Position numbers and translations under genes: made by a program
The notes under the pieces: generated by a model
Seen by the model: the letters and a program-made list of their open reading frames with translations, nothing else
Database searches by the model: none
What the model was told of the DNA's origin: nothing
In this document: piece by piece, positions 6,450 to 48,497 of the stretch
How the letters are laid out: each line of letters opens with the position of its first letter
Numbering within the stretch: the stretch's first letter is position 1
Source of the DNA: Lentisphaerota bacterium
Lineage (GTDB): Bacteria; Verrucomicrobiota; Kiritimatiellia; RFP12; UBA1067
Reading direction: 5' to 3'
NCBI GenBank assembly: GCA_015061665.1
Contig: SUWC01000001.1
Location: 35,737-99,736, forward strand
Length of the DNA: 64,000 nt

Positions 6450-6477
6450 AACTCGACTGTAAAATATTTTTTAAAAT

Positions 6478-6515
6478 ACCCCCTTGCGCGCAAGGCGGCT
6501 AATATGATATACTAT
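6478..6515 (+). promoter_or_regulatory. Promoter of the tRNA cluster: CCCCCTTGCGC(-35)-N18-TATACT(-10)
   Basis: TTGCGC at 6484-6489 lies inside the perfect palindrome CCTTGCGCGCAAGG. TATACT at 6508-6513. The same architecture recurs at 12988-13017. Confidence 0.6.
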
Positions 6516-6530
6516 TTCTTGTTTTCGATT

Positions 6531-12939: not shown

Positions 12940-12974
12940 AGAACGAACGGTGAAACTGCTCGGTGCAAAAAAAA

Positions 12975-13020
12975 TTCAAATACCCCCTTGCGCGAACGAC
13001 CGAACTTATGATATACTATG
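12975..13020 (+). promoter_or_regulatory. Promoter of tRNA-Leu: CCCCCTTGCGC-N18-TATACT
   Basis: TTGCGC at 12988-12993 and TATACT at 13012-13017. Nearly identical to the 6478-6515 promoter, including the flanking ATGATATACTAT. Confidence 0.6.
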
Positions 13021-13032
13021 TCTCGTTTTACC

Positions 13033-28584: not shown

Positions 28585-28745
28585 CGGCTTTCTAGGTTTC
28601 TAGGCTTCTAGAATTCTAGGCATCTAGATTTCTAGAGTTTCTAGAGTGGCCACTGGGCAGTGGCTAAACATCTAGAACCACTAGAACCACTAGCTTACTA
28701 GCCCCAGTCCCGCTAGATGGCGAGCCATTCGCCTAGATGCGCTAC
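28585..28745. repeat. CTAG-rich tandem octamer repeats (TTCTAGRN) followed by a CTAGAACCACTAGAACC / CCCAGTCCCGCTAGATGGCGAG block
   Basis: TTTCTAGGTTTCTAGGCTTCTAGAATTCTAGGCATCTAGATTTCTAGAGTTTCTAGAG; a paralogous block lies at 32820-32885. Confidence 0.7.
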
Positions 28746-28747
28746 TC

Positions 28748-28850
28748 AATTTGAAATCGTGCAGCGAGTGCGCGACGGCTACTCCGTGTTGTCTACGAAG
28801 CTCGGGCGCGTATCCGCATTTGGTTCCCCGCTCCTTGCTATTATGGGTTC
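28748..28850 (+). repeat. Conserved roughly 100-bp repeat element, copy 1 (candidate REP/REPIN-like unit or small RNA)
   Basis: CGTGCAGCGAGTGCGCGACGGCTACTCCGTGTTGTCTACGAAGCTCGGGCGCGTATCCGCATTTGGTTCCCCGCTCCTTGCTATTATGGGTTC. Near-identical at 32168-32270 and, inverted, at 35170-35290. Confidence 0.75.
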
Positions 28851-28879
28851 GGGTCAGGCCATAAGTTTTCGAAAGTGTA

Positions 28880-29135
28880 AGCTAGCGCCCCGCTAAATCC
28901 CCGCGCGAAGCTCCTATTTTTAGCGGAGGGGTGGCGGGAGCGGGGTGTGCCGAGTGAGACGCGCGCAGGCTGAGCCGTTGAATGACGTTGCACGCAACCA
29001 CTGATCATCGCCGAGGCTTGACTGACTAAGCGAAGCTTCTTGTCTTGAGCAAGAAGGCTCAAAGACCTGCGCGGTCGAGACCGAGGCAGCAGCCCCGGCC
29101 CGCCACCCCGTAGCGTCCGTGGGTCGCTGATATAT
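28880..29135. repeat. Further mosaic repeat blocks shared with 32925-33060 (CGCTAAATCC...TTTTTAGCGGAGGGGTGGCG hairpin; CACCCCGTAGCG)
   Basis: Collinear similarity to the 32.9-33.06 kb spacer, including a conserved CCGCTAAA / TTTAGCGG inverted repeat. Confidence 0.6.
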
Positions 29136-29752: not shown

Positions 29753-31351
29753 ATGGAACCTTGCGAAAAGAAAATTAAGGTGCCCACCACGGGGTTGTTT
29801 GACTTCCCTGAGCTTATACTCGGGGGCGAGGGAAAGTATGTAGACAAGACCGACCTTCTGTACAGGCTTGCCTCGCCAACGGCCGATGCGCAGCTTTTCA
29901 TCTCGCGTCCGCGTCGCTTCGGCAAGTCGCTCATGCTCTCCACTTTGAAGGCGATGTTCGAGGGACGTCGCGACCTATTCAAGGGCCTTGCCATCGATGC
30001 GCTTCCCTGGGAGGGATGGGAGCGGCCTCGCCCCGTGCTCTTTTTCGACATGTCGCGCCTTTCGCCGTCCGAAGGCCGTAAAGCGATGGAAATCGCCCTT
30101 GCCGGACAGATCCGAGAGGCTGCGGAAACGTTTGGCGTGGGTCCGCTGGACACGGGCTCCATAGGGTTCGCGTTCGACGAGTTGATCAGAAGGGTGGCGG
30201 CGACATCGAGCGACGGCAAGGTCGTCGTTCTGGTAGACGAATACGACGCGCCAATGACGAGCGTCCTTGACGATCATGAGTATCTGCGCTGGATGAGGTT
30301 CTTCCTGCATGATTTCTACTGCCGCCTCAAGAGCAATTCCGGCATCATCCGGTTCCTCATGATGACTGGCGTGACGAAGCTCACGAAGCTGTCGATCTTC
30401 TCTGGGCTGAACCACCTAACCGACCTTACGATGGATCCGCGCTTCGCGACATTGCTCGGCTACACGCCGGAGGAGCTGGACGGTCCCCTGCGCGAGAACG
30501 TCGAGGTGTTCGCCGCGCAGAACGGCATGGACTTCGCGGCCGCGAAGAAGGCGCTTCTCTCCTGGTACGACGGATATAGGTTTTCGCCCGACTCCGAGGC
30601 GAAGGTGTGCAATCCAGTGTCGCTCGGCAAGGCGCTGAAGACATGCAAGCTGAAGAACTACTGGGAGGCGACGGGCCACGCCACGATCATCGTCAACCGC
30701 ATCAAGGCCGCGGACGAGATTCCTGCGGACCTGAACGGACTGGTTGTTTCGCAGACGCAGCTTGATGTCTGCGATGCCGAGACGATGCCGATCGAGGCGT
30801 TGCTCTACCAGGGTGGATATCTGACCATCAAGCGTGTGCGCGCCTCGGGGCGCCTCGAACTTGGAATGCCGAACGAGGAAATCTCCACTTCCCTGTCCGA
30901 GGGCTACGTCGCGACCTTGCTTCGCAACGGCATGTCCGACTGGAACGAAGAACTGGCGGACGCGCAGGACGACTTGATCGAGAAGGGCGTGGAGACGCTT
31001 CTTAAGAAGAACCTCAAGTCCGCGTTCGCTGCGGTTCCGCACGAGTGGAAGATCGAGAGCGAGCGTGAGGCGAAGCGCTACTTCCTTTTGTTCATGAAGC
31101 TGATCGGCTCTGAGATCTCCGGCGAGCGGCAGAGCGCGCGCGGAAGGGCGGACGCGATACTCAAGGACAAGAGCGGCGTCTACGTCTTCGAGTTCAAGTA
31201 CGGCAAGTCGGCGGCGGAGGCGCTCCAGCAGGCCCGCACGAAGGAGTACGCGGGCCCCTGGCTCGACGGCGCGCCGCCGGTCTTCTACGTTGGCGTCAAC
31301 TATGATCCCGCGAAGCGCGGTATCGACGACCCGCTCGTCGAACCTGCGTAG
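29753..31351 (+). CDS. Predicted AAA-ATPase (PF09820-like) with C-terminal PD-(D/E)xK nuclease domain (DUF1703-like)
   Basis: N-terminus KIKVPTTGLFDFPELILGGEGKYVDKTDLL and the P-loop-like RRFGKSLMLS match the family. C-terminus GRADAIL...YVFEFKYGKS gives D...E-x-K. TATAAT sits 3 nt before the ATG (near-leaderless). Confidence 0.7.
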   Translation: MEPCEKKIKVPTTGLFDFPELILGGEGKYVDKTDLLYRLASPTADAQLFISRPRRFGKSLMLSTLKAMFEGRRDLFKGLAIDALPWEGWERPRPVLFFDMSRLSPSEGRKAMEIALAGQIREAAETFGVGPLDTGSIGFAFDELIRRVAATSSDGKVVVLVDEYDAPMTSVLDDHEYLRWMRFFLHDFYCRLKSNSGIIRFLMMTGVTKLTKLSIFSGLNHLTDLTMDPRFATLLGYTPEELDGPLRENVEVFAAQNGMDFAAAKKALLSWYDGYRFSPDSEAKVCNPVSLGKALKTCKLKNYWEATGHATIIVNRIKAADEIPADLNGLVVSQTQLDVCDAETMPIEALLYQGGYLTIKRVRASGRLELGMPNEEISTSLSEGYVATLLRNGMSDWNEELADAQDDLIEKGVETLLKKNLKSAFAAVPHEWKIESEREAKRYFLLFMKLIGSEISGERQSARGRADAILKDKSGVYVFEFKYGKSAAEALQQARTKEYAGPWLDGAPPVFYVGVNYDPAKRGIDDPLVEPA

Positions 31352-33240
31352 CAATAAGGGCGTGGAGCAGTCGACTTCCAAGTCACTGGCTGTTTCCACA
31401 ATTCCATAATTCCACAATTACCCTGCTTGCTGTGTAAGGGCTTGGCTTCGTTCGGGGCAACGGTCCTCGCCTTTTGATACGGCCGATTTGCGCGTCCTCA
31501 CGCGGCTCGGCAACCGCTAGGTTTGCCTTTGCCGCGAGTCCTGCTCAAATCGGCTCGTCTGAAAAGGTTCCGGTCCGCGCGGCCCCGATCGAAGCCAACC
31601 TTGCATTTTCGAAAACGTTCGCCGCGACGCCTTCGCGCCGGACGCCCCGGCCCCGCAGAGCCGTCCGGCTCCTCCCGCGCCCATCATCGGCAATCCGCCT
31701 CGCCTGGCTTCGTCGCGCGACGACGTGGCTTGCGCCGCGCCGCCGCGCGTCCTTGCCATGCTCGCGTCTTGCCGCGCTGGACGCGAGCCGGAGGCGTTCG
31801 ACCTGCTCCGCCAGTTCGTCCGTCGCTAGTCGTTGCGTCTCGCTTGTGCCGCATTGCGCGCTGCCGTGCGTGGTCCTCCCCGGTCCAAAACGGGCTTCTC
31901 GCCAGTGAGTCAAGCCTTTGCGGTCAAACAACAAAAAGGGCGTGGAGCAGTCGACTTTTCAGTCGCTACGCATTCGCCTTCCTCGCGCGCTCCCGATTCG
32001 TCTGATTCGGTGCGAGGCCTGTGAATGTCCGTCGCGGGATGCGCCTGTCGCGAAGCGATCAGGTTGGGTGAGCGCAAAGCGCGAACTGCGAAGCAGCCGC
32101 CAGGCCCCGCGCGACGGACCCCCTGCAAGTGTCATTCCTTGCCAATGTATTCGTCCAGATGCGCTGCTCTATGTGAAATCGTGCAGGGAGTGCGCGACGG
32201 CTACTCCGTGTTGTCTACGAAGATCGGGCGCGTATCCGCATTTGGTTCCCCGCTCCTTGCTATTAGGTGTTAAGACAAGAAACCACGAAATACACCAAAT
32301 ACACGAAAGGGGAGACAAAGTGACCGTCCTAGGCCAATCGACACTTCGCACGAAAAACATTATCGTGCCTATTGCACTGAATGTTACATATTTGCTAAAA
32401 TATGGGTGGCGAAGGCGAAAGCCGGAGTCACCGGCAGGCGGAAAAGTTTCCGCTGATGGCGAGGAGTAATCCTCGCCATTACTTTTATCGTTGTAAATTG
32501 AGACTAAGCAGTCGTTTGCAATTTACTCTTCAAAGACTGTCTATGTTGATGATGTCCACCCCGCGGAATATAGACTATTTCAAGTCGCTGATACTCTTTG
32601 CACGCTAGAATTAACGAGGGCGAAGCTAGATGCAGGAGATAGGCTTTCTGCATCTGAGTTTGAGTTCTTTGGAGGAATTCAGAACTTGAGGAAGCAATAT
32701 TTAAAGCCAATCTCCCGCAAGCGCCTGTGAAGAAATTGCTTTCGATGCGCTTATCCACTATGGGCCCGTGCATCGAGTGCGCGACGGCTAGAACAGAGAA
32801 TGTAAAATAAAAAGTGTAAAATGTAAACCTCTAGAACCACTAGAACATCTAGCCCCAGTCCCGCTAGATGGCGAGTTATTCACCTAGAAGAATGTAAAAT
32901 GTAAAGTGTAAAATGTAAAGTTGCTAGCGCATCGCTAAATCCCAGTGCGACGCTCACATTTTTAGCGGAGGGGTGGCGAGCCGCCCGCCCGCACGGATCG
33001 GGCGACGTCGTCGGGCGCCACCCCGTAGCGACTGAGAAGCCCCGGCTCGCCGCCGTAGCGCTCACGGGGTCATGCGACCACACGAGTGCTCACCCCCCCA
33101 GATCGCCGCATACCACTATATATTGTGCCCGACATAGGCCAATCGACGCTTCGTATACAACCCCGTAAAAAAATTCACATTTCCCCCTTGCGGGGGAAGA
33201 GAAAATGTGCTAAGATATAGTCGTCAAGTAAGAAAAGGAG
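31352..33240. repeat. 1.9-kb repeat-rich spacer with no credible ORF
   Basis: Contains AAGGGCGTGGAGCAGTCGACTT x2 (31358, 31925); the 100-bp element copy 2 (32168-32270) and a partial copy at 32750-32790; TGTAAAATGTAAA heptamer runs (32800-32930); and blocks shared with 28.6-29.1 kb. All track ORFs here look like GC-driven artefacts. Confidence 0.7.
33185..33222 (+). promoter_or_regulatory. Promoter of the secreted-protein gene: CCCCCTTGCGG-N17-TAAGAT
   Basis: TTGCGG at 33188-33193 inside the palindrome-like CCCCCTTGCGGGGG; TAAGAT(ATAG) at 33211; SD AAAAGGAG before the ATG at 33248. Confidence 0.55.
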
Positions 33241-35044: not shown

Positions 35045-35126
35045 ATGGGGAATGGGGAACGGGGAATGGGGAACGGGAAGAGGGGGAATGGGGAATGGGA
35101 AGAGGGGGAACGGGGAATGGGAAGGG
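35045..35126. repeat. G-rich heptamer tandem repeat (GGGGAAT/GGGGAAC x about 11), potential G-quadruplex-forming
   Basis: GGGGAATGGGGAACGGGGAATGGGGAACGGGAAGAGGGGGAATGGGGAATGGGAAGAGGGGGAACGGGGAATGGGAAGGGC. Inverted copy of the 29696-29738 block. Confidence 0.8.
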
Positions 35127-35290: not shown

Positions 35291-35423
35291 GTATTCAACG
35301 TCGATAGGCGCGTCTTTGGCGTAAGGGTAGCGCGTAATCGCAAACACAGACAACCTCGCGGCTTTCCAGCTTTTGAAAATGATATAATATCAAAGATTTC
35401 AAATTAGCCTGGAGGCGAGATAC

Positions 35424-36797
35424 GTGGAAATAAAAGCCGAGATACAGCCATCGAAGTTAAGACGATGCAATGGTTGGGATTACCGCCAGCCTTGCATCTA
35501 TCAGATAACAATTGTTTTAGCCAATAGGAAAAGCCAGCTGCTGGGGCGGCTTGTGGTGGGGGAAGCTGCCGCGCCAGAGGGCAAATCAAGTCGTTCTGTG
35601 CTTGAAGCGGCAGCTTCAAGTTACACTTCTCTTTCCCCGGCGGGCGAGGCGGTAAAGGCCGAATTTTTCAAGATAGGCGAGCATCACCCTGAGATAAAGC
35701 CGCTTGAAATCATGGTTATGCCCGATCACTGCCATTTCATAATTCGCGTAATGCGGCCGATGGCCAAGCCGCTCGGCAACGCGATAGGCGGCTTCAAGGC
35801 CGGCAGCTCAAAGGCAGCAATCGGAAAGCCTGGCCTATGGGCAGATGGCTTTCAAGATACCATACTCTTTCACGAGGGCCAGCTCGCGGCGATGTTTACC
35901 TATTTGCGCGACAACCCACGAAGGCTGGCAGTTAAACGGCTGATGCCAGAGCTTTTCAGGGTAAGAAGGGGCTTGAAACTGCCGCTTCAAGTGGGAAGCA
36001 ACCACGAGCTGCCGCTCGTGGCACAGAACAAGAACCCCGAGCTGCCGCTCGTGGCACAGAACAACAACCCCGAGCTGCCGCTCGTGGCTGAGAGCAACTT
36101 GAAGCTGCCGCTCGTGGCACAGAACAAGAACAAGTCGGCTTTCTTGAGTTGCTCTGAGCCAAAGGCGGAAGCCTTTGGTTTCTTCACCGCCATCGGCAAC
36201 CACTTTCTTCTTAGAGCGCCAAGTATATTGCAGGTTCAGGTATCGCGGCGAGATTTTGCCTATAGGCGCGTGGCGAAGCCGGGCGGCGGGGTTAAGATAG
36301 AGCGCGATGACGCCGGCTGCCCTTTGGCGGCGGCGGCAACGCCAGCTTTCATCGAAAAGCGCGATGAGCTGATGGCAGCCGCTGAACATGGCGCCGTTTT
36401 GATAAGTCCCTGCATCAGCGACGGCGAAAGAGAAATCGCGAGGCTTGCTTTTTCGAAGGGCTTGAAGGTTGTCACCCTTTCGAACAAAGGCTTTTCACCG
36501 CTTTACAAGCCTGGCGGCAAGCTCTTTGATATGACAGCCAATGGCAATTTGCTTATGCTCGCGCCAATAAACTGGCCATATTGCCCAGGCGAGAAAAAGA
36601 TGACTCGCATCGACGCCTGCATACTCAACCGAATCGCCCAGTGGCTAGCCGGGAGCGGGGCTGCCAAGATCGACTACAAGGGCATGAAGCCCAATGACAT
36701 CGACCGCCTCGCTAGGAGCGCCATTTACCGGCACCAACTCGCCACTTCAGCTGCGATAGCGCCTGCGGCGCGAACCACGAAAACGCGGCTCATCTGA
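35424..36797 (+). CDS. REP-associated tyrosine transposase (RAYT; IS200/Y1 HuH) fused via an 11-aa tandem-repeat linker to a C-terminal domain of about 230 aa of unknown function
   Basis: Conserved RAYT blocks: ITIVLANRKSQLLGRL; the HuH motif MPDHCHFIIRV; LWADGFQDTILFHE; and the catalytic-Tyr motif TYLRDNPRRLAV (the Y-x-x-x-N-P helix). Then ELPLVAQNKNP x4-5. Then a C-terminal region (ISPCISDGEREIARLAFSKGLKVVTL...) with no recognised motif. Confidence 0.75.
   Translation: MEIKAEIQPSKLRRCNGWDYRQPCIYQITIVLANRKSQLLGRLVVGEAAAPEGKSSRSVLEAAASSYTSLSPAGEAVKAEFFKIGEHHPEIKPLEIMVMPDHCHFIIRVMRPMAKPLGNAIGGFKAGSSKAAIGKPGLWADGFQDTILFHEGQLAAMFTYLRDNPRRLAVKRLMPELFRVRRGLKLPLQVGSNHELPLVAQNKNPELPLVAQNNNPELPLVAESNLKLPLVAQNKNKSAFLSCSEPKAEAFGFFTAIGNHFLLRAPSILQVQVSRRDFAYRRVAKPGGGVKIERDDAGCPLAAAATPAFIEKRDELMAAAEHGAVLISPCISDGEREIARLAFSKGLKVVTLSNKGFSPLYKPGGKLFDMTANGNLLMLAPINWPYCPGEKKMTRIDACILNRIAQWLAGSGAAKIDYKGMKPNDIDRLARSAIYRHQLATSAAIAPAARTTKTRLI
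35974..36135 (+). repeat. 33-bp tandem repeat (4 copies plus a degenerate fifth) inside the RAYT-fusion ORF, each unit forming the hairpin CCACGAGC-TGCC-GCTCGTGG
   Basis: GAGCTGCCGCTCGTGGCACAGAACAAGAACCCC repeated at 36007, 36040, 36073 and 36106. In frame, encoding ELPLVAQNKNP. Confidence 0.85.
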
Positions 36798-37103: not shown

Positions 37104-40100
37104 GTGAAGATAGATAGCGCGAAAGCGACGCTGAAGCGGCTGATGACGGCCATCTTTGCGATGGTCGGCGTCAGCGTATGCGCTCGCGGTGCGGTCACGT
37201 ACCCCGTCACGGCCGAAGAAGCAGCCTCCTACGGCGGCGCAACCGGCGGCGACATCGTCAACATGATCGTCGAGGACGGCGGCAGCGTCTATCTCGCGCA
37301 CATCTTCACCAACACGGCCGCTTCGGCCACCCTTACGATTCCCTCCGCCAACAAAATCATGTCCGGCACTGGTCGCATCCTCCTCGTCGGAGGCGGCGGC
37401 GCGGGCGGCGGCGACTGCGGAGGAGGCGGTGGCGCGGGCGGCGTCGTGATCTCCAACAACTGGACCTTTGCCGAAGGCAGCATGACGGTCTCCGTCGGCG
37501 CTGGCGGCGCGTCGGCGGCGCGCGGGGACGCGGGCCACGACGGCTCGGCCACTACTCTCCTTCTCGGCGGCGTCACCTGGACGGCCCTGGGCGGCGGCGG
37601 CGGCGCTAAGTGCAACAATGTGGACGCTAAGAGCGGCGGCTCGGGCGGCGGCGGTGCGCGCAGCATGGCGAAGGGCAACGGACTTCAGCCCTCCCACGCC
37701 ACTACGCCCGGCTTCGGCAACGGCGGCGGCGCGGCAAACGACTACCGGGGCGGCGGAGGCGGCGGCGCGGGCAGCGCAGGCGCAAATGCCGTAGGCAATG
37801 TTTCCGGCAACGGCGGCGACGGCATTGAGTCGGACATCACCGGCGTTTCGAAGTGGTATGGCGGCGGCGGTGGCGGCGGCGGAAACGCCAGCGACCTTGC
37901 CGGACGCGGCTTCGGCGGCAAGGGCGGCGGTGGACACGGCTCCCTCAGCGGCAACTACTACGGCAGCCAGGGATATGCCCACGGCTGGAACGGCGAACCC
38001 GGCACCGGCGGTGGCGGCGGCGGCAGCGGCGGCGACTCCTCTGATGTCGCCAGCGGCGCGGGCGGAAGCGGCATTGCCGTTATCCGCTATCAGGTTGACC
38101 TCTCCGAAGGCGGCGACCCGCTGACGTCAGCGGACAAGGTGCGCGTTGCGCCGATTACCGCTGAAGAGGCTGTCGCGCTTGGCGGCGCGACGGGCGGCGA
38201 CCTGATAAGGAAGGTCCGCAACGACGACGGGACCTTTGACGTCGTCCACATCTTTACGAACACGGCTTCCGCGGCGGTTTTCGGCATTGGCGCGGTCAAT
38301 GGCGTCATAGCCGACTCTGGACGCTTCCTGGCGGTCGGCGGCGGCGGCGGCGGTGGCTCCACGGCTGGCGGCGGCGGCGGCGCGGGCGGCTTTGTCGCTG
38401 GCAATGTTACGCTTTCACAGGGACAGTATCAGGTAATCGTCGGCGCAGGCGGAGCGGGAGGCGCCAGCTCCAACGTCCGCAACCGCGGAACCGTCGGCTC
38501 TGACACAACGATCACGAACCTCACGACGTCCACCCAGATCGCGCTTGCACTTGGCGGCGGCGCGGGCGGTACGCTCGGCTCCACGCCTAACACCCACCGT
38601 CCTGGCGGCAACGGCGGTTCTGGCGGTGGAAGCGTGCGCGGCTATTCGACGTCGGAAGACGGCTCGTATTCCGGCAAGGCGTTGCAGCCCACAGAGGGCT
38701 ACCCTGCTGGTGGTTATGGATGCGATGGCGGGACTGGCAAGAACGACAATAACTACGGTGGCGGCGGCGGTGGCGCTGGCGGTGCCGGTGTTGGCGGCAC
38801 GGACTGCACGGGCGGCGCGGGTATGGAGTCCGACATACTTGGCTATGTGCAGATGTTTGCCGCAGGCGGCGATGGCGCGGCCAGGGGATACTATCCTGGC
38901 GCTGACGGCGAGGTCGCGACCGGCAACGGCGGTGGCGGCGGCGGTGGCAACGCGAACGCTGGCGCCGGCGGCGGAACCGGCGGCTCGGGCGTTGTAGTGA
39001 TCCGCTATACGATTCGCGGCGGAGAGATCAAGGAGATGGAGGACGGCTCCACGCTCTACAAGTTCGACGGCGACGCCATCTTCACGCTCGAAGGCGCAGC
39101 ACAGGTTCGTGTTCTCGCAGTCGGCGGCGGTGGCGCTGGTGCGTCTGGGGCAAAAGGCGCTGGTAGCCGTGGTGGAAATGGCGGTGGCGGCGCTGGTGGT
39201 TTTGTAGATGTAACGAATGTCTGGTCAGGTGCCTCGTATACTATAGCGGTAGGTGCAGGTGGTGTCACCGATTCCGTTACTGGATCAGATGCATCTAGCA
39301 GGAACGGCGGAGACACTGTTATTTCAACTTCCGGAAACGCTGTAATAACTGCCTTGGGCGGCGGCGGCGGCGGTGCATACGGCCCAGGCGCAGCCGGTGG
39401 ATCGGGCGGCGGCGGTTCGTGCTCTGACACATCGCCTTATGCTGCTGGTTTAGGAGGTACTGCATCACAGGGCTATGACGGCGGCATCGGCACACAGGCT
39501 ATTGGCCGTTCTGGTGCAGGCGGCGGTGGCGCAGGCGGTCCTGGTGCAAACACGGCAACAAACAACACTGGTGCTGATGGCGGTGCGGCCAAGGAAAGTG
39601 ACATTTCTGGAACAATTCAGTATTATGCTGCTGGTGGCGGCGGCGGTGCTCGTACAGGAACAGGCGGTAAAGGCGGTGCCGGTGCAGATAAAGTCGTTAT
39701 CGGCGGCACTGGTGGCGGCGATGCCACGACGGCCAAGGGCCTTGATGGCACCGGTTCCGGCGGTGGCGGCGGCAGCAACAGCTCCGTCGGTGGCGCTGGT
39801 GGCTCGGGTATCGTCTATATCCGCGTTATACGCTACATGCCGAAGACGCCTGAGCCCGAGTATATTTTCGAGTATGCGAACACCGAGTACGTCGTGTTCG
39901 AGCGCGAGGCTATCGACGAGGATGTGTTCACGATTACCACCGGGGACAATGTCTCCACCAACCGCATTGCGGCGACTGCGAAGGGCGTCTACACCTACAC
40001 TCTCGCCCTCACTGCTGATGCGCGTGCGAAGGGCTTCACGTGGTTCGACGGGACGACTGAGGACAAGCACGTCACGCTGACGATCTCAAAGACGATTTCC

Positions 40101-43100
40101 GAGATCTACTCCATCCACCAGTACGGCTGGCAGATCGGCGAGGAGCGTCCCCCGCTCCAGCTCGACATGAACCCCGAGGGCGTGCCCTACTTGACTCAGT
40201 TCGCCAATTCCGAGCTTGGCCCGTGGGCAACCAAGTCGTGGGACGACTTCGAGGAAGTGCCCGGCACCTACTGGCTGCGCATCGTAGTTGAGGAGAGCGA
40301 CAACTACACAGGCGTTACGAGCGATCCTGTAAGCTTCAAGGTCTGGGAGTATAATGCGACGAAGTATCCGACCTACCTCGGCTACCACAAGGACATCGTG
40401 GTCGACGCGACTACGTTTGCGGGTGTTACCGAGACGCTCACGGACTTCCCGATGCTCGTCAAGGTCTCCGAAGATCTCATCCCCGACTTCTACAAATACG
40501 CCGATTCGTCCGACGGCTACGAAGGCATCCGCTTCACCGTGCCTGGGCCCGACGGCGCAGCGGTTGAGGTCCCGTTCGAAGTCAACGAGTGGAACGAAGG
40601 CGGCGAATCCTCGTTCTGGGTGAAGGTTCCGTCCTTCGCTCCTGGCGCATACGCCGTCACGATCAACTACGGCGACATCGGCGGGGAGCTGCCCGAGAAC
40701 GATCCCTCGCAGGTGTGGAGCGACTACATAGCGGTCTGGCACCTTGACTCGGGGCACTATACCGAGGATGCGACCGGTCACGGCTATACGCTTTCGGGCG
40801 GCACAATGACGGCGGGCGCGGACTCCGTCTTCGGCTCGTCGACATACGCCAGCAACGGCACGCTCGTCGCAAAGGAATGGGAAGGCGACTATCCCTCCAG
40901 CGGCAGCAACTTCACCTACACCGCCTGGTACAAGGCGCAGGGATACAGCGGCAACATGAACTTTGCGGGCAGGAAGCCCCTGACGGGCTCGTACGATCCC
41001 GGCGGCTGGATGCTGAGGCTTGAAGAAAGCGTTTCTACAACCATACGATTCTATACCTCGACGAACTCCGCAGGAGCCTACTACACGATCAAGGACATCC
41101 CTGCGCTCAAAGACAACTGGGACTTCATCGCCATTGCATCCTCGGGAGTCAGGTTTGACGTTACAGTGAACGACGCCGTGAAGGCGTCGGAAACAAATCC
41201 TCAATACCTGATCTACAGCGGAGACACGCCCGATCAGCTCAATGTCATGACAAAGTTTATGGCGGCGGATGAAGTGCGCGTGACGGAGAAGGTCCGCAGC
41301 CAGGCGTGGCTCCTTGCGGAGTACCTGCAGGGCAAGCTTTCGTCCGAGAACCCCGGCATCGTCGTGGGCGACGAAACGTTCGTCACCCCCGGCGCGACGT
41401 TCTCCAACAAGTGGCTTGAGTACCCGACGATCAACCCGATTCGCTGGTTTGCGGGGCAGACGACGTCCATCAGCCTCGGCAGCGCGCTGTACGGCGAGGT
41501 GGAGTATGTCTTCAACGGTGCGGACGGTTCGGCGCTTACGAACGCCATTCCGACTACGGCAGGGTCGTACGACGTCGTGTTCTTTGTCAGGGAGATCGAT
41601 TCGGGAACCTGCACATACGCAGGACTTGTCTACGCCTATCCCGAAGTCATCGACATCCTTGTGAAGAACGACGGCACTGGCGGCCTTGGCGGCACGACTG
41701 GCTCGGCCACGCTCTCCGGCCGCGTCCTTCTCGCCAACGACGACGACCTCGCAGGCTTCGAGATCTCCGGGCAGTGCTACTGGCAGACTAACGAAACCGC
41801 CGACACCTACTGGGTGCACGAAGCCGAGTCGTCGGTGTTCCTGCTGAACATGATGGGGCAGGGCACGATCAATACGTTGATGTCCAAGGAACCTGTAGAC
41901 GAGCTATGCGGCGCGACCCGCATCTGGCATCTGGACAATGTCCGTATCGGCAACACTGAGTATGATGATTTGCAACCGTCGGACCGTATGTGCTATCTGC
42001 CGTGGTCAAGCACATCCAAGGTGCTTTCTGAGAATGGTAGCTATATAACGACAAAAACTGCTGCGAATTGTGCTCATCTTGCGATGCGTAGCGTTTCGGG
42101 CGCTGCTGTGTATTCGCCCTGCTATACGAACGGCATCGGCACGATCTACTTTGACGCCGTCAACGCGTGGACGGTGGACAACAACTATCCGACCAACTAC
42201 ACGATTGTCATTGAGTATGCGACGAACTGCGTTGAAAGCGTTGGATATGACAAGCTGCCAACGGACGCCAATCTAACCACTCTTATAGAAGTACTTGACG
42301 AAGAGGAGAACGTTGTCGATTCCTACAACGGCGTTGACTACGAGCGCGCCAACTGGCAGCCGATCGACATGGTTCCTCTCTACTACGACGGAAAAGATTT
42401 CCAAACCAGCTACTCCAAGACTTTTGGCGACGTCGTCAACTCGTTCGACGGACCTGTTTCGTCTCTCTGTCTCGACGAGACAGTTGGCGGAGGACGCGAC
42501 AGGTTCTTCCGCATCCGTGTCCCCGTCCTTGACGAGCTTGACGGCTACCGCGGGCCGATCCGCTTCAGGATCAAGCGTACGACGACCAAGGGTGTCGGCC
42601 TTGACAGTAACAACTTCATCCTTCTCGACAACCTTATCGTCTCGTATCCTGCGATGACGGCGAACCTTGAGCCGAGGGGCAAGTTCGATCCGACGCGCTA
42701 CGGAAAGAAGGCGCTTGGCACGGAGTGTGCGTTCGACGTTCCGTTCCCCGCAGTCGGCGATTCCATCAAGGGCCTTGCGAAGGGGAGCTTCGAGACGAAC
42801 CCGCTCGTCGTGGATGCGGATACTTCGACGTTCGTGACGGGCGCGAAGCTCCACTACCGCTGGCGCTACCTCAACCAGGATTTCGGTGAATGGGCCGCGG
42901 TCGCCGTTGCGCCGAACACGTGGGAGGCTGCAACCCCGCTCAACCTTTCCGACTACTCCGACCGCCCGGGCGACGTCGAGTACTGGTACGAGCTTCTGCA
43001 GAACGCGCCGTACTACTCGTACACCGACTACTCGGGACTCGGCATTGGTCTTGGCGGACTCTACAGCGAGAACATCCCCGTCGTCACCAACCGCTGCGAC

Positions 43101-46100
43101 ATGGGCACGCTCGAGAGCTGCGGCACTGACTGGTTCGTGCGTCTGCGCGAGGGGAAGAGTCCCTACGAATCGCTTCAGATCGCGATCGACGACGGCAGCA
43201 AGACTAACATCGTCTACATGGAAGTCGTCAAGGACCACACGTGGCGCGGGTACTTGCAGACGTTCACCAACCAGGCCGGCACCGTCAGGATGCAGGTTCG
43301 CGGAGTCAACTGCCAGACGTTCGGCTCGGGCGAGTTCGTCGAAAGCGTCACCAACATGTACAGCGTCGCGGCGCTTACTAACATGCCGGTAAGCACGACC
43401 ATGGAGCTTGGCACGGAGGACGACTGGAACGACCTCGACATCGACGCGATGACGGGCTACCTCATGTTCCAGGTCGACGACTCCACGAGGTCGCTCACGA
43501 TCGTGCACGCTGACTACCAGTCGTTCAACGAGTGGAACGACGCGAAGGGCTCGAAGTTCGTCGGCAACTCGACCGACAACCTCACCAAGAGCGGAACGGC
43601 CGCGGGCAAGAAGAAGTATGTCGGCGACTGGAGCGCTTGGACGAGCATGGGCGCGGGGTCCGACGACTGGACGGTACCGTACGTCGGCTGGGCCGACCTA
43701 ACCCACATGCTGGGCCGTGAGCCGAACGTGGAGTTCCAGAGCGACACGTCGGGCAACTGGCAGGTCGGCCCCGGCATCTGGGTCTCGAAGTGGTACGACG
43801 ACTCGCGCAACAACATGGGCGTCGCGCTTCAGATGGCGGGCCAGGGACGCGGCTACGTGCAGATGACCGACTCCAACATCCTCCCGCGTGGCTTCGGGAC
43901 GCTCAGCTTCAACGCGCGCCTCGCGCAGACAATCGGATTCGAGGACTTCGTCTACTACGAGGGCGTGACGCCCAAGTCGCTTACGAACTACACCTTCGTG
44001 GCGCGCGGCGCGTTCGACACATCGAACAACACTGCGTTCCGCGGCAAGGCGTCGCTCTCGCTCGTCGCGCACTACCGTCCGAAGATCGGCTGCTACGAAT
44101 TCCGCGTCGAGCAGGTCCAGGCGAACAACAACACAAACCCCTCCGGCATCAACAACAGGAGCCAGCGCTTCAGCCTCTACCGCTGGAGGGTCGGGGACGA
44201 CGGGACGATTGAGCCGACGCTTCTCGGAAGCTACATGAACGACTCGTTCAACATTCCCAACACGTCCGGCTCCACCGGCACCTACATGCCGCTCTACATT
44301 TCCGTCTCGAACGACGTCAGCGGCGCGGTCTGCATTATGGCTGGCGTTTGCAGAGAAGGTGTTTCGGCCTCGAGCAACACGGGCACCGAGAGCGGGAAGA
44401 ACTTCTATTCGCTCTGCTACAAGGACACTTCGTCCTACAAGATCACGTCTGGAACGTACGGCTGCCTCTCGGCGAACTGCCCGGCTAAAATGATTCGTCC
44501 GTTCCACTACGACAAGCCGGTTCCATTCCTCAACGCGGGGCCTGCGGCAAACACGATCGACAGGTACTCCAACAACGCCATAACGTTCCCTGGAACAAAG
44601 CAAGACTGCTACGCCGAGCTTCTTACGACAGACCTTGAGGACCTGACGTGGGCCACGACCCCAGGCCGCTTCGTCAACTTCGCCGACAGCGGATCGGTCT
44701 ACGGCTTCACTGCGCCGACTACGGCCGTTACGCAGAAGCTGATCGTCTACACGGTTCCGGTTTCGGAAGTCTCGAGCGCCACGGCATCCAAGGACTGGAA
44801 GTGGACCGCGGTCACGAACATCGTCGTAAGCGGCTTCGGCTCGAACGGAAAGCTGACGGCGTACAACGTCCCGCTCTACGTTGCCGAGGACAGCTACATC
44901 AAGATCGCGGTCGACGGCAAGCCGACGGATACGAGGCGCGACGTCGTTATCGACTCGCTGACGGTTACGGCGTGGCGCGGAGCTAGCTGGAACGAGGACA
45001 TAGACGACCTCATCACGTACGCCCCCAACAACTTCGAGCCGTCCGAGATCAGGTGCAACTTCAACGAGTTCTCGTTCTTCGACGCGTGGGTGACGAACAT
45101 CACCGTTACCGGCAACACCAAGACGAACGCGCTTCTCCTTTCCGCGCGCAGGACGCCTGCGGGCGGGGTGTGCGGCATCAAGTCGCCGCTTATGAACGGC
45201 GAGCCGCTCGGCAGCGACAAGGGCAGCCGCGGCATTGGCCTGGGCATGGTCTCGTTCAGCTACCGCAACGCGCAGCCTAACGTCAACCTGCTCGTCCAGA
45301 TCGCGACGAACGGCGTCGGCTCGGCCAACATGGCGACGATCAACAACTTGAGCGAAGACAACTGGGTCACGTGGACGAACGTCAGCTTCAGCGCCGGCAG
45401 CGGGCGCCCGTCGTCCGGCGTCGCCAGCGTCTACCTCGGCCTCCACGGCGTCGAGGGCGCGCTTCGCGTCATCATGGACCCGGCTGTCGTCAACGCGGTG
45501 TCGAAGCAGCTCAACCCGAGCCTCTTCGGCGACATTTTCATCACCGGCATCAAGTGCACTGACGAGCCGGAGCTCGACGACTCGAGCTGGTGGGGCTGGA
45601 ACCTGCGCGGAGTCGGCATATCCTCCGCCAGCGGCTCAGACGAGGAGAACCGCATGTACCTTCCCGACATGACGCAGAGCGCGGACGAACTTGGCATGAG
45701 CATGGCGCTCAACAACTCCGTTAGCGTCGACACCTACGACGAAGACTCCGAGACGTACAAGGCGAACATGCCGTTCGTGCAGACTCCGGTCTTCGGCACG
45801 AACCTCGTCGGCGAGATCATGTTCCGCGCGAGGAAGTACGGGTACAGCGACGCGGCGACCGATGCGCAGGATGCGTACGTCACGCTTCTTGGCGCGAAGG
45901 AGGACGCGCCCGAGAAGTTCACAGAAATCACGAACTTCTGCGTCAACGCGAAGACGTTCAAGACGTACAGCTACAAGACGGAGCCAGGCGTCGACTACGC
46001 GGCGTTCAGGCTTGCGGTAAGCGGCGTTGACGGAGTCGACAGGGCGGGCATCTGGCCCGGTTCGGGCAGCCCGGTCCGCGTCATCCTCGACGAGGTCCTC

Positions 46101-48497
46101 GTAACGGAGGCCGTCCGCGCCAAGATGGGCTTCAGGAACGTCGGCGCGTTCAGGGGCTATCCGGGCACGCGCAACTTCATCATGAACGACCTTCTCATAG
46201 TCCCGAACGTCCCAAGCGAGCAGGAGCAGCCGCTCTGCAACGAGACGTGGGGCGTGCAGTGCGAGATATACAAGGAGCTTCTCCCAGACGAGATCGACCT
46301 TGGGAGGACGCCGAACGTCCGCCTGCACTACTTCGAGGGCAAGCTGCCCTGGGGCTGGAACAACTGGAAGACGAAGGAGAGCGCGAAGACGGTCAGGCTG
46401 ACGCTGGCGACTGACTCCACTGAGGACAACCTCGTCTACCGTTCGAGCAACAAGTCGCTTCCCGCGAACGTGATCGCGCCTATCGCGACGTCGGGCGTCA
46501 CGTACCAGTACATGCTCGAGGTCGAGTTCTGGCAGGTCGGCAGCACGGTTCCTTCGACGAACTGGCTTACGTCCGCGCAGTGGACGAAGCCGGAGTGGTA
46601 CAACCAGATCGACTTCAACGCGGAGGGCGGCGCTTTCTCGGCGTACACGATCCTCGACACTGTCGCCCCGCACTGGGCGTGGATCAACGAGGTGAACCTC
46701 TTCGACGAGTACGACATGGACCTCCAGAACAGCGAGGTCTCCAACCAGTACATCGAAGTCGCGGTTCCCGCCGAGGCGGACATCTCGGGCTGGAAGATCA
46801 AGATGCTCGAGGCTGTCGGCGGGCATGGCGAAGTCGTGACGAACACGCTTGCGGTATTCGGCGAGAACGGGCTTTCGGGCACGAAGCCGGGCCTGCTCGG
46901 GATGGACGCGAACAAGGTCTACCGCGTGATCGCGACGCCGAAGGTGTCGTCGCAGTACCTCAGGAAGAGCGACGGAACGCTTGACGGAACGTGGCAGGTC
47001 CAGATACCGACGTCGACGATATCGGCGGCGGGCGAGATCCTCGGCATCCAGCCGTTCGGGCTCCAGCTTGTCCGCGCGAGCGACATCGTCGAGCACGAGA
47101 TCGTGTGCATTGGAACGAACTGGTGGGGCAACTCCGTGAACTACGGCGGGTCGTACCATCCGACGAACACGGTGAACACGCTCAACAAGAGCGTGAAGGG
47201 CGCGAACTTCTTCTACGTCGGCGCGGACGAAGGCGGCGACGGCAGGTCGGTCGACGTGTTCAAGGAACGCGGCGAGACGGTCGATTCGTGGACGAACCGC
47301 TGGGTGAAGACGCCTGGTCGCATCAACACGGACGAGAACGGCAAGAAGCAGGACATCGACCCGAACCATCCGACGCCGAACGGCGACACGATCATCGTCT
47401 ACTGCAACCTCGACACGACTATGGGCGAGAGGCTGACGCAGACGGCGGGCGACGTCGTCGATTCGCCGCGCAACGAGATACAGTACCTCGTGAAGGGCAG
47501 CGAACTCGGCCTGACGATCAGGTACAAGGCGGCGCCGTGGTTCAAGCTCGAGTCCGTCACGACGAACATGGTCGGCTCGGCCGTCTCGACCGAGATTCCG
47601 TTCACGACGATATCCGAGGCGGAGCGCCTTTACGAGACGGTCGTCGGCATCGGGGCGTCCAACAACTTCTCGGTCGTCGCGAAGCCGAACGTTCAGGACA
47701 AGCTCAGGGAGCTCGGGCTTGGCGACGACAACCGCTATACCGACGCGGTGGTCGACTGGCTCTCCGGCGGACGCACCCTGAAGGGCGAGTTCGCGAACGA
47801 CGACGGCGAGATCAGGCTTGCGGAGTACAGGGGGCTGAACGGCAGCTTCATAACGAACCTCACGCTGACGTCGATGTACTGGCTCGACATGGACCCGACG
47901 GCCGGCGGCCTTGCGCTGTACGGCGGCATGTCGTCCGCCCCGACGCCTCGCACGTACGAGTACTTCGACGGCTACATGATCGACGAGACCGGCGCGGAGG
48001 TTGCGAACTACAGCAGCTTCACGAACCTGCGCATGAACGTGAAGATGTGGATCACGAACGAGAACGACAACACCGCGTGGGCGCCTTACACGCTGCGCGG
48101 CGTGAGGCCCGGCGAGACGACGGTCGGCTCGAAGTTCTCGCTCAAGCAGTGGGCGGCGGACACGAACGTAACGTTCAAGATCACGGGCCTTCTCGGCAAC
48201 GGCCTAGTCAGTTCGAGCGACAGGAATGCGTGGGTGCCGCTTAGGTGGTTCGTCTTCAGGTGCGACGACGACTTCGTCAGCACGTCGTTCGACGAGAACT
48301 TCGAGACGAAGATCGAGATCGACGACCCCTACACGCCCGCGTCGCCGGGCTACGCGGCGTGGCGCCGCTGGTTCGAGCTGCACGGCGGAAAGTTCGGCCA
48401 GGGCTGCAACCTGTTCTATTTCTGGTCGCTTGACGACGTAACGAAACCGATTGGATTCGAGATGCTCGAGAAGGAGAACTACTATGAGTACGAGTAA
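37104..48497 (+). CDS. Giant secreted/cell-surface protein (3797 aa) with triplicated N-terminal glycine-rich module
   Basis: GTG start; signal-peptide-like MKIDSAKATLKRLMTAIFAMVGVSVCA. Three modules of about 300 aa, each with V-x-AEEA-x-GGATGGD...HIFTNTAS, then LLVGGGGAGGG...GGGGAGG-V...VSVGAGGA, ending GGSG(I/V)xxIRY. The remaining 2800 aa or so are Thr/Asn/Gly/Tyr/Trp-rich and beta-strand-like. Confidence 0.85.
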   Translation: MKIDSAKATLKRLMTAIFAMVGVSVCARGAVTYPVTAEEAASYGGATGGDIVNMIVEDGGSVYLAHIFTNTAASATLTIPSANKIMSGTGRILLVGGGGAGGGDCGGGGGAGGVVISNNWTFAEGSMTVSVGAGGASAARGDAGHDGSATTLLLGGVTWTALGGGGGAKCNNVDAKSGGSGGGGARSMAKGNGLQPSHATTPGFGNGGGAANDYRGGGGGGAGSAGANAVGNVSGNGGDGIESDITGVSKWYGGGGGGGGNASDLAGRGFGGKGGGGHGSLSGNYYGSQGYAHGWNGEPGTGGGGGGSGGDSSDVASGAGGSGIAVIRYQVDLSEGGDPLTSADKVRVAPITAEEAVALGGATGGDLIRKVRNDDGTFDVVHIFTNTASAAVFGIGAVNGVIADSGRFLAVGGGGGGGSTAGGGGGAGGFVAGNVTLSQGQYQVIVGAGGAGGASSNVRNRGTVGSDTTITNLTTSTQIALALGGGAGGTLGSTPNTHRPGGNGGSGGGSVRGYSTSEDGSYSGKALQPTEGYPAGGYGCDGGTGKNDNNYGGGGGGAGGAGVGGTDCTGGAGMESDILGYVQMFAAGGDGAARGYYPGADGEVATGNGGGGGGGNANAGAGGGTGGSGVVVIRYTIRGGEIKEMEDGSTLYKFDGDAIFTLEGAAQVRVLAVGGGGAGASGAKGAGSRGGNGGGGAGGFVDVTNVWSGASYTIAVGAGGVTDSVTGSDASSRNGGDTVISTSGNAVITALGGGGGGAYGPGAAGGSGGGGSCSDTSPYAAGLGGTASQGYDGGIGTQAIGRSGAGGGGAGGPGANTATNNTGADGGAAKESDISGTIQYYAAGGGGGARTGTGGKGGAGADKVVIGGTGGGDATTAKGLDGTGSGGGGGSNSSVGGAGGSGIVYIRVIRYMPKTPEPEYIFEYANTEYVVFEREAIDEDVFTITTGDNVSTNRIAATAKGVYTYTLALTADARAKGFTWFDGTTEDKHVTLTISKTISEIYSIHQYGWQIGEERPPLQLDMNPEGVPYLTQFANSELGPWATKSWDDFEEVPGTYWLRIVVEESDNYTGVTSDPVSFKVWEYNATKYPTYLGYHKDIVVDATTFAGVTETLTDFPMLVKVSEDLIPDFYKYADSSDGYEGIRFTVPGPDGAAVEVPFEVNEWNEGGESSFWVKVPSFAPGAYAVTINYGDIGGELPENDPSQVWSDYIAVWHLDSGHYTEDATGHGYTLSGGTMTAGADSVFGSSTYASNGTLVAKEWEGDYPSSGSNFTYTAWYKAQGYSGNMNFAGRKPLTGSYDPGGWMLRLEESVSTTIRFYTSTNSAGAYYTIKDIPALKDNWDFIAIASSGVRFDVTVNDAVKASETNPQYLIYSGDTPDQLNVMTKFMAADEVRVTEKVRSQAWLLAEYLQGKLSSENPGIVVGDETFVTPGATFSNKWLEYPTINPIRWFAGQTTSISLGSALYGEVEYVFNGADGSALTNAIPTTAGSYDVVFFVREIDSGTCTYAGLVYAYPEVIDILVKNDGTGGLGGTTGSATLSGRVLLANDDDLAGFEISGQCYWQTNETADTYWVHEAESSVFLLNMMGQGTINTLMSKEPVDELCGATRIWHLDNVRIGNTEYDDLQPSDRMCYLPWSSTSKVLSENGSYITTKTAANCAHLAMRSVSGAAVYSPCYTNGIGTIYFDAVNAWTVDNNYPTNYTIVIEYATNCVESVGYDKLPTDANLTTLIEVLDEEENVVDSYNGVDYERANWQPIDMVPLYYDGKDFQTSYSKTFGDVVNSFDGPVSSLCLDETVGGGRDRFFRIRVPVLDELDGYRGPIRFRIKRTTTKGVGLDSNNFILLDNLIVSYPAMTANLEPRGKFDPTRYGKKALGTECAFDVPFPAVGDSIKGLAKGSFETNPLVVDADTSTFVTGAKLHYRWRYLNQDFGEWAAVAVAPNTWEAATPLNLSDYSDRPGDVEYWYELLQNAPYYSYTDYSGLGIGLGGLYSENIPVVTNRCDMGTLESCGTDWFVRLREGKSPYESLQIAIDDGSKTNIVYMEVVKDHTWRGYLQTFTNQAGTVRMQVRGVNCQTFGSGEFVESVTNMYSVAALTNMPVSTTMELGTEDDWNDLDIDAMTGYLMFQVDDSTRSLTIVHADYQSFNEWNDAKGSKFVGNSTDNLTKSGTAAGKKKYVGDWSAWTSMGAGSDDWTVPYVGWADLTHMLGREPNVEFQSDTSGNWQVGPGIWVSKWYDDSRNNMGVALQMAGQGRGYVQMTDSNILPRGFGTLSFNARLAQTIGFEDFVYYEGVTPKSLTNYTFVARGAFDTSNNTAFRGKASLSLVAHYRPKIGCYEFRVEQVQANNNTNPSGINNRSQRFSLYRWRVGDDGTIEPTLLGSYMNDSFNIPNTSGSTGTYMPLYISVSNDVSGAVCIMAGVCREGVSASSNTGTESGKNFYSLCYKDTSSYKITSGTYGCLSANCPAKMIRPFHYDKPVPFLNAGPAANTIDRYSNNAITFPGTKQDCYAELLTTDLEDLTWATTPGRFVNFADSGSVYGFTAPTTAVTQKLIVYTVPVSEVSSATASKDWKWTAVTNIVVSGFGSNGKLTAYNVPLYVAEDSYIKIAVDGKPTDTRRDVVIDSLTVTAWRGASWNEDIDDLITYAPNNFEPSEIRCNFNEFSFFDAWVTNITVTGNTKTNALLLSARRTPAGGVCGIKSPLMNGEPLGSDKGSRGIGLGMVSFSYRNAQPNVNLLVQIATNGVGSANMATINNLSEDNWVTWTNVSFSAGSGRPSSGVASVYLGLHGVEGALRVIMDPAVVNAVSKQLNPSLFGDIFITGIKCTDEPELDDSSWWGWNLRGVGISSASGSDEENRMYLPDMTQSADELGMSMALNNSVSVDTYDEDSETYKANMPFVQTPVFGTNLVGEIMFRARKYGYSDAATDAQDAYVTLLGAKEDAPEKFTEITNFCVNAKTFKTYSYKTEPGVDYAAFRLAVSGVDGVDRAGIWPGSGSPVRVILDEVLVTEAVRAKMGFRNVGAFRGYPGTRNFIMNDLLIVPNVPSEQEQPLCNETWGVQCEIYKELLPDEIDLGRTPNVRLHYFEGKLPWGWNNWKTKESAKTVRLTLATDSTEDNLVYRSSNKSLPANVIAPIATSGVTYQYMLEVEFWQVGSTVPSTNWLTSAQWTKPEWYNQIDFNAEGGAFSAYTILDTVAPHWAWINEVNLFDEYDMDLQNSEVSNQYIEVAVPAEADISGWKIKMLEAVGGHGEVVTNTLAVFGENGLSGTKPGLLGMDANKVYRVIATPKVSSQYLRKSDGTLDGTWQVQIPTSTISAAGEILGIQPFGLQLVRASDIVEHEIVCIGTNWWGNSVNYGGSYHPTNTVNTLNKSVKGANFFYVGADEGGDGRSVDVFKERGETVDSWTNRWVKTPGRINTDENGKKQDIDPNHPTPNGDTIIVYCNLDTTMGERLTQTAGDVVDSPRNEIQYLVKGSELGLTIRYKAAPWFKLESVTTNMVGSAVSTEIPFTTISEAERLYETVVGIGASNNFSVVAKPNVQDKLRELGLGDDNRYTDAVVDWLSGGRTLKGEFANDDGEIRLAEYRGLNGSFITNLTLTSMYWLDMDPTAGGLALYGGMSSAPTPRTYEYFDGYMIDETGAEVANYSSFTNLRMNVKMWITNENDNTAWAPYTLRGVRPGETTVGSKFSLKQWAADTNVTFKITGLLGNGLVSSSDRNAWVPLRWFVFRCDDDFVSTSFDENFETKIEIDDPYTPASPGYAAWRRWFELHGGKFGQGCNLFYFWSLDDVTKPIGFEMLEKENYYEYE

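Follow-up and report, generated by a model that had tools for sequence, protein, structure and literature searches.

A stretch of 64,000 nucleotides from the genome of a Lentisphaerota bacterium (assembly GCA_015061665.1, contig SUWC01000001.1, positions 35,737 to 99,736; hereafter the window, whose first letter is position 1 for all coordinates) contains a 1.37-kb gene that unites an N-terminal Y1 HUH domain, related to the REP-associated Y1 transposases (RAYTs; REP, repetitive extragenic palindromic sequence), with a large C-terminal domain of predicted DprA/SLOG type. The gene also carries hairpin-forming DNA elements that are translated as part of the protein. The features of the locus are given below, with scores from the covariance model R1.

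35411..35415, + strand: GGAGG box resembling a ribosome-binding site, 8 nt before the GTG (direct reading of the sequence)
35424..36797, + strand: complete open reading frame (ORF) of 457 amino acids (aa) with a GTG start, comprising a Y1 HUH domain, a repeat loop and a predicted DprA-like domain
35424..35990, + strand: Y1 HUH (RAYT-like) nuclease domain, aa 1-189
35587..35624, - strand: reverse hairpin element, CTTGAAGC-tgcc-GCTTCAAG plus tail CACAGAAC; R1 45.4 bits (a training member of the model)
35727-35735, + strand: HuH motif, H102-C-H104
35901-35903, + strand: catalytic Tyr160
35913-35918, + strand: Asn164-Pro165
35972..35991, + strand: degenerate hairpin element, CTTGAAAC-TGCC-GCTTCAAG, with a 7/8 stem and a decayed tail; R1 11.6 bits
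35998..36137, + strand: tandem array of three full elements and one partial element, encoding ELPLVAQNKNP units, disordered in the model
36145..36182, - strand: reverse hairpin element, CCAAAGGC-ttcc-GCCTTTGG plus tail CTCAGAGC; R1 37.6 bits
36159..36743, + strand: C-terminal domain with a predicted DprA/SLOG-type Rossmann fold, about aa 246-440, with the conserved motifs GN..LL, SPCISxGE, KPxG..FD and LxLAP

The signature YxxxNP defines class 2 (TnpA-REP-like) proteins, whereas IS200 proteins have YxxxQ (Quentin et al. 2018, PMC6006769). The window protein reads Y160-L-R-D-N164-P165 and has the class 2 signature. Across 75 diverse homologs H104, Y160 and N164 are invariant and H102 is found in at least 90%, in agreement with an earlier reading of the sequence (the first-pass annotation), according to which the HuH motif and the catalytic tyrosine are retained. 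In the AlphaFold model Y160 and N164 lie in the helix 153-173, with N164 as a polar third ligand four residues after the tyrosine. The predicted structure has the fold of the Y1 catalytic core and matches the TnpA proteins of IS608 and ISDra2 (Foldseek). Sequence models respond less strongly: the Pfam family Y1_Tnp (PF01797) gave E 0.19 and 12.3 bits for the window protein, below the cut-off of 23, and was detected at E <= 0.1 in 38 of the 75 relatives, while the NCBIfam model REP_Tyr_transpos (NF047646) gave E 1.9e-7 and 31.1 bits, under its cut-off of 80. Among the relatives the latter model scored 26-55 bits, always above transpos_IS200. The RAYT likeness of this part, proposed by the first-pass annotation, is weak by sequence and clear by predicted fold, and the domain is a Y1 HUH enzyme closer to RAYTs than to IS200 transposases.

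The full-length AlphaFold model was built on a diverse alignment (A4, 75 sequences) and is confident overall (mean predicted local distance difference test score, pLDDT, 86.3; predicted template modelling score, pTM, 0.82), with disorder limited to the repeats at aa 197-243, where pLDDT falls below 50, and to the termini. In this model the C-terminal part is a DprA/SLOG-type Rossmann domain, and Foldseek agrees on this type. A poorer model of the C-terminal part alone (shallow alignment, pLDDT 59), which served as a secondary check, places DprA, LOG, ShosA, MilB and Rcl first, and it is therefore to the C-terminal domain that the DprA/SLOG fold is assigned. The first-pass annotation had described the C-terminal residues as lacking any recognisable motif. 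This holds for family databases, since Pfam, NCBIfam and PADLOC have no family for this part of the window protein, but not for the structure: the domain is not without a fold and is predicted to be of DprA/SLOG type. A further profile search, with the diverse alignment A3, recovered essentially no homologs beyond the close ones already in the set. With the single protein as query, a search of PDB sequences produced only matches to designed ankyrin repeats (aa 309-362), which were rejected as spurious because the model has a beta-alpha-beta Rossmann unit at these residues.

A search of 5.8 billion proteins yielded 1,738 homologs of the window protein, and the best 120 of these are all full length (384-496 aa, 56-70% identical). 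The C-terminal 222 aa used as a lone query returned 725 clusters at 50% identity, most of them composed of proteins of 320-460 aa in which the match lies at the C-terminus. In a scan of one genome per species, at least 520 loci with the fusion gene were found, in Kiritimatiellia, Lentisphaerae, Victivallales and many Bacteroidales, almost all of them in rumen or gut assemblies. The window protein itself is 100% identical to MBE6381446.1 (“hypothetical protein [Lentisphaerae bacterium]”), and the cluster of this record contains four proteins from different sources, all four of 457 aa.

These data bear on the possibility that the ORF is an artefact, i.e. that two genes were merged by a frameshift or an assembly error within the repeats. 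Such tracts can easily be misassembled, but there are hundreds of independent full-length homologs, many of them free of repeats, the 457-aa protein is identical in four records, and both domains pack together in one confident model. Since hundreds of full-length homologs and identical 457-aa records exist, a frameshift or mis-assembly is excluded, and the chance that the gene is an artefact is practically nil. The fusion to a large C-terminal part that the first-pass annotation described is genuine and also occurs in other genomes, and the family is a conserved fusion, real and old.

The repeat tract reported by the first-pass annotation was recovered by Tandem Repeats Finder as a 33-bp unit present in 4.1 copies (36000-36131, score 180). 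Each unit consists of a 20-nt hairpin, CC(A/C)CGAGC-TGCC-GCTCGTGG, and a 13-nt tail, CACAGAACAAGAA. The palindrome CCACGAGC-TGCC-GCTCGTGG is perfect at 36002-36021 and pairs at 7/8 positions at 36035 and 36068, while only its right half survives in the fourth unit; the remainder of the 64-kb window contains no copy (0.00 expected from shuffles). As single-stranded DNA (ssDNA) the tract folds with z = -4.3 relative to shuffles. Three further hairpins of the same 8+4+8 design, overlooked by the first-pass annotation, lie within the ORF, at 35601-35620, 35972-35991 and 36159-36178. The first of them is perfect, reads CTTGAAGC-GGCA-GCTTCAAG on the + strand and belongs to the reverse element that is translated as the VLEAAASS region (aa 55-67), part of a Y1-domain loop. 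The second is the degenerate element, encoding LKLPLQV, and the third, again perfect (CCAAAGGC-GGAA-GCCTTTGG on the + strand), belongs to the reverse element that encodes the PKAEAFG region. In the window protein the elements occupy the loop between the two domains (aa 183-253) and another loop around aa 55-67. Three of the ten perfect hairpins of the window (stem of at least 8) are inside this 1.37-kb gene.

In the 20-nt hairpin of the element a TNCC loop caps an 8-bp stem whose closing C-G pairs are invariant, and the tail CACAGAAC(AGGCCG) comes next; as a single sequence the hairpin-plus-tail element was taken as CCACGAGCTGCCGCTCGTGGCACAGAACAAGAA. The tail measures 8-14 nt, stands at the 3′ side and reads GTTCTGTG 5′ of the hairpin on the opposite strand. 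When the hairpins of the window clade are oriented by the TNCC loop, the tail CACAGAAC follows each of them, irrespective of the direction of the element relative to the ORF. Since the hairpins were selected without reference to it, the tail is independent evidence for one element family.

In 40 homologous genes 101 hairpins with stems of at least 7 bp were found, and 34 of the 40 genes have at least one; codon shuffles average about 0.45 per gene, so that about 18 would be expected. These hairpins are located at the length-variable sites of the family. The homologs differ in length after aa ~46-60, in the GFK-LWE loop, in the interdomain region and now and then further downstream, and the length variation comes from inserted DNA elements, not from protein evolution. 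Stem sequences are lineage specific, and one palindrome may be read in differing frames or orientations, as in IGDNIAD versus LSAIISPI. At one gene position the stem is CTTGAAGC, CTTGGGGC, CTTGGCGC or CTTGGAGC, each with a matching partner arm (variants GAA/TTC, GGG/CCC, GGC/GCC and GGA/TCC), and the peptide changes from LEAAASS to LGAGAPS or LGASAPS. In an alignment of 35 elements both-sided changes were seen in six of the eight stem pairs, the closing pairs and the loop being invariant. All six frames are open in 23 of the 35 elements, compared with 29.5% of shuffles. The codon shuffles and the orientation-independent tail bear out the earlier suggestion that the palindromes are REP-like DNA elements and not a by-product of the peptide. 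The role of a dedicated linker, which had been ascribed to the repeats, does not fit the family: many members are free of repeats (e.g. P0256, P0267 and P0154), and the element is also present in other surface loops, in both orientations.

Among relatives (loci are designated by L and a number), perfect hairpins (stem of 8 or more) are denser in the gene, at 1.52 per kb, than in the flanks, of which about 380 kb give 0.19 per kb. The same element accounts for many of the outside copies, which are situated no more than about 100 nt from the gene ends or inside intact hsdM and hsdR genes, where they are in frame and at times form inverted pairs. Locus L024 has arrays of elements at both sides of the gene, and L020, L021 and L011 also have flanking elements. 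In most Bacteroidales members the hairpin differs (TGTTGCGTTG-N-CAACGCAACA, with the variants TGTTGTGGC/GCCACAACA and TGTTGCTGT/ACAGCAACA). At most Bacteroidales loci one copy falls within the gene at aa ~140-170, accompanied by an identical or nearly identical hairpin 45-110 nt ahead of the gene and/or 1-50 nt past its end. This layout is a REPtron-like arrangement with an additional intragenic copy. A palindrome of another kind, GAAGCGGCGAGACGCCGCTTC, is present seven times at 43-1597 of L028, partly with 48-nt spacing and ~4-5.6 kb upstream of the family gene; it is unlike the hairpin of that gene, ATCGGCGATAATATCGCCGAT.

A scan of metagenomes with a 17-base pattern covered a small sample and was no census. 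Among the matches listed, 115 of 122 lack a hairpin, so that chance matches predominate, and seven form one; five of these seven lie in or within 90 nt of a family gene, while the other two are doubtful and GC-rich. On the basis of this limited sampling, the elements are tied to the gene, unlike the scattered classical REPs. The number of elements changes between close relatives, as the first-pass annotation had proposed to check. In one cluster at 90% identity, proteins at least 98% identical have one, two or three copies of a 10-aa (30-nt) LEAAASSTGG unit, which precede a further conserved LEAAASS hairpin; proteins of such similarity differ by 0-3 units of 30 nt. One protein of this cluster lacks 43 aa and has a single LEAAASS copy left, and in another cluster lengths range from 431 to 476 aa.

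Clustering of the neighbouring genes revealed no universal partner gene. Type I restriction-modification genes were found near divergent members of the Planctomycetes-Verrucomicrobia-Chlamydiae (PVC) group (HsdS at nine loci, HsdR at eight and HsdM at at least five), and there the family gene is often placed between hsdS, or an ApeA-HEPN gene, and hsdR. Family members residing in type I restriction-modification operons (L002, L008, L011, L015, L016-L018, L032, L036 and L047) are 39-60% identical to the window protein, and hairpin elements are in frame in the adjacent hsdM or hsdR genes, sometimes as inverted pairs.

We consider it probable that this family is an undescribed subclass of RAYT-like (class 2 TnpA-Y1) proteins, marked by the DprA fusion, and that the repeats are its cognate REP-like elements, lodged in its own gene. 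According to this reading, a Y1 HUH (RAYT-like) ssDNA nuclease/ligase would be permanently fused to a DprA/SLOG-type Rossmann domain, with the hairpin-plus-tail element as its cognate substrate. Copies of the element would be inserted or duplicated in frame at structurally tolerant sites of the enzyme's own gene and translated as disordered peptide; in relatives they would flank the gene in a REPtron-like manner and sit in frame in neighbouring genes. New copies would be created by the activity of the enzyme instead of replication slippage. The DprA-like domain, judged by its predicted fold, is likely an ssDNA-binding module, and we hypothesize that it may hold the single-stranded tail or flank, or recruit RecA. 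The unusually long conserved tail (8-14 nt) is a candidate ligand for this extra domain.

Several points weigh against this interpretation. The DprA-like assignment comes from the predicted structure and is not matched by sequence profiles: Pfam PF02481 (DNA_processg_A) hit none of the 75 family members, and in a profile search of PDB sequences DprA (5mll) reached only E 1.8. The 5′ GT[AG]G tetranucleotide at the hairpin foot is absent from the elements, the conserved flank being the 3′ CACAGAAC. Binding and cleavage of the hairpins on ssDNA would follow the analogy of TnpA-REP with REPs. The 98% pairing in the element alignment arises by construction, because the alignment was selected for pairing. 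Slippage or recombination, as local duplication, could explain the change in tandem copy number, and tandem copy counts in metagenome assemblies can be fallible, although the window protein is identical in four records. Finally, the elements differ from classical REPs in that they are not dispersed in high copy. The R1 model found no match in the 62.6 kb of the window outside the ORF (best 10.7 bits, E 0.66), so the REPtron-like flanking is seen in relatives only, and a “mobile REP” may be the wrong picture.

Other explanations can be set against the same data. The repeats might be an ordinary disordered linker made by slippage, with palindromes that are a side effect of ELPL/LEAAAS codons and unrelated to the Y1 domain. 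The predicted disorder of the segment would suit this, as would the slippage-like, whole-unit copy changes among near-identical proteins and the confinement of the window copies to the ORF. However, the hairpin and tail recur together in both orientations, in various frames and at several sites, as well as in non-coding flanks and other genes; compensatory changes in the stem accompany those of the peptide, and the Bacteroidales hairpin, different as it is, is identical inside and beside the gene. The orientation-independent tail largely refutes the linker, which we hold to be improbable. The hairpins could also work as RNA, controlling translation or mRNA stability of their own transcript, and not as DNA substrates. 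They are concentrated in the transcript, their structure is kept at the same place within each clade (aa ~60 in PVC members, aa ~143 in Bacteroidales), and REPs elsewhere are known to influence mRNA stability (PMC3733652). Against this, the elements occur in both orientations with a tail of DNA polarity, so that the transcript would contain the tail in some cases and its complement in others; copies precede the start codon or lie in other genes, and a search of Rfam found no matching family. The orientation-independent tail points to a DNA-level element and argues against an RNA regulator, which is a quite unlikely explanation.

The gene and its hairpins may instead be an autonomous insertion sequence of the IS200/IS605 type, in which the hairpins are the ends and the internal copies are nested remnants. 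The structural match to IS608 and ISDra2 TnpA, the presence of hairpins just upstream and downstream of the gene in many relatives, and a variable genomic context, repeatedly within type I restriction-modification operons, are in line with such an origin. Nevertheless, each locus has a single gene copy, as does the 64-kb window. Four genomes have two copies each, both divergent, which belong to different subfamilies, and the hairpins differ in the sole pair compared (L022 versus L038 of RUG10619). The signature is YxxxNP and not the YxxxQ of IS200 (PMC6006769), the RAYT model outscores the IS200 model, the same palindrome stands at both sides without distinct left and right ends, and no tnpB is found among the neighbours. 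Low copy number, divergent paralogs, the YxxxNP signature and palindromes that are identical at both sides speak against an insertion sequence of the IS200 type, which we regard as unlikely. A bolder version of the preferred RAYT-like reading deserves mention, albeit as a long shot: the Y1-DprA protein might act chiefly in cis, writing or erasing 30-38-nt hairpin cassettes that a coding sequence can accommodate, both in the gene that encodes it and in others no more than a few kb away, including those for type I restriction-modification, while cleavage would be linked through the DprA-like domain to the capture of ssDNA or to RecA-dependent repair.

The RAYT of Escherichia coli, TnpA-REP (PDB 4ER8; class 2, subclass 2.2), has ~165 aa compared with 457 aa here and is without the added DprA-like domain. 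The window protein scores 31 bits with the NCBIfam RAYT model, below its cut-off of 80; in its element a 3′ tail of 8-14 nt (CACAGAAC...) takes the place of the 5′ GTAG tag, and the copies are clustered in and around the gene and not dispersed in hundreds. In-frame insertions of REPs in tnpA-REP genes are the hallmark of subclass 2.4, and REP insertions in unrelated genes are cited in the same work (Quentin et al. 2018, PMC6006769). Subclass 2.4 proteins have the motifs NH[IFV]H / WQ / YIxNNP, measure 194 aa in the median and lack a C-terminal domain; their REPs are of the canonical GT[AG]G or the “double-foot” kind (PMC6006769). The proteins described here differ in having DHxH / W[AE] / Y[LIV]xDNP, with insertions in the interdomain loop and tandem arrays. 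The longest subclass of that survey has a median of 325 aa, and the C-terminal additions it reports are of helix-turn-helix/DnaA_C type (PMC6006769). No link of a DprA-like domain to a RAYT or Y1 transposase was found in the literature searched. The suggestion of the first-pass annotation that the architecture is undescribed thus stands for the DprA fusion, within that literature, but in-frame REP insertions are known (PMC6006769) and the architecture is widespread. The DprA fusion and the gene-restricted element are of interest to specialists, not categorically new.

Compared with DprA (Smf) and ShosA (PDB 4LJK, 3UQZ, 3MAJ and 8ZVA), the C-terminal domain has no detectable sequence-profile similarity (PF02481 not hit) and no sterile alpha motif (SAM) or winged-helix accessory domains; it is fused to a nuclease, and any role in transformation or RecA loading is hypothetical. 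Compared with TnpA of IS200/IS605 elements (IS608 and ISDra2), the gene is a single copy without tnpB or distinct ends and has YxxxNP, not YxxxQ. Short palindromic repeats tolerated in frame in coding genes and translated as surface insertions are represented by the Rickettsia palindromic elements. These are 100-150 bp long, occur genome-wide and have no known associated Y1 enzyme, whereas the elements described here have 30-38 nt and are tied to one gene.

In the window, the gene is flanked upstream by a gene for an unannotated 578-aa protein and downstream by one for a glycine-rich protein of 3,797 aa. Further upstream are a T2SS-F gene and an AAA-ATPase/PD-(D/E)XK gene, the latter being the ORF 29753-31351, 4 kb from the family gene, with AAA-ATPase_like (PF09820) and PDDEXK_9 (PF08011) domains. 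The spacer before the family gene contains a G-rich tandem repeat at 35045-35121 (ATGGGGA x 10.7, or alternatively a 29-nt unit x 2.6). Two giant ORFs lie downstream: 37104-48497 (3,797 aa), the N-terminal part of which is long, glycine-rich and repetitive, and 48934-61494 (4,186 aa), with recurring DTDGDG-type, calcium-binding-like motifs that correspond to the DNA repeat families D2 and D5. Intergenic segments are duplicated at 28698-28936 and at 32149-32271 / 32849-32978 (123 nt at 93%, 56 nt at 88% and 40 nt at 93% identity), ahead of the ORFs that begin at 29753 and 33248. As the only candidates, they are probably the 100-bp repeats mentioned in the first-pass annotation; they are unlike the hairpin element and had no match to R1. 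An 81-nt repeat at 6445-6525 / 12949-13029 (72% identity), containing an AT-rich stretch and the palindrome-like CCCCCTTGCGCGCAAGG, may be a shared promoter or regulatory region.

Both the function of RAYTs and the spread of REPs are still unsettled, and the constant presence of a DprA-type domain in this family directs attention to the part of the mechanism that involves ssDNA and RecA. The findings also correct the annotation of proteins of this family from the gut and rumen, which carry no call for the C-terminal domain and are labelled, if named, as “hypothetical protein” or “transposase”. The element is short and sharply defined (8-bp stem, TNCC loop, 8-14-nt tail) and hence ready for binding and cleavage assays. 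Being linked to the gene and variable between near-identical strains, the elements are such that their gain and loss could be followed in metagenomes. If the cis-acting reading were true, the family would represent local, enzyme-driven, in-frame variation of protein length and not a genome-wide REP system.

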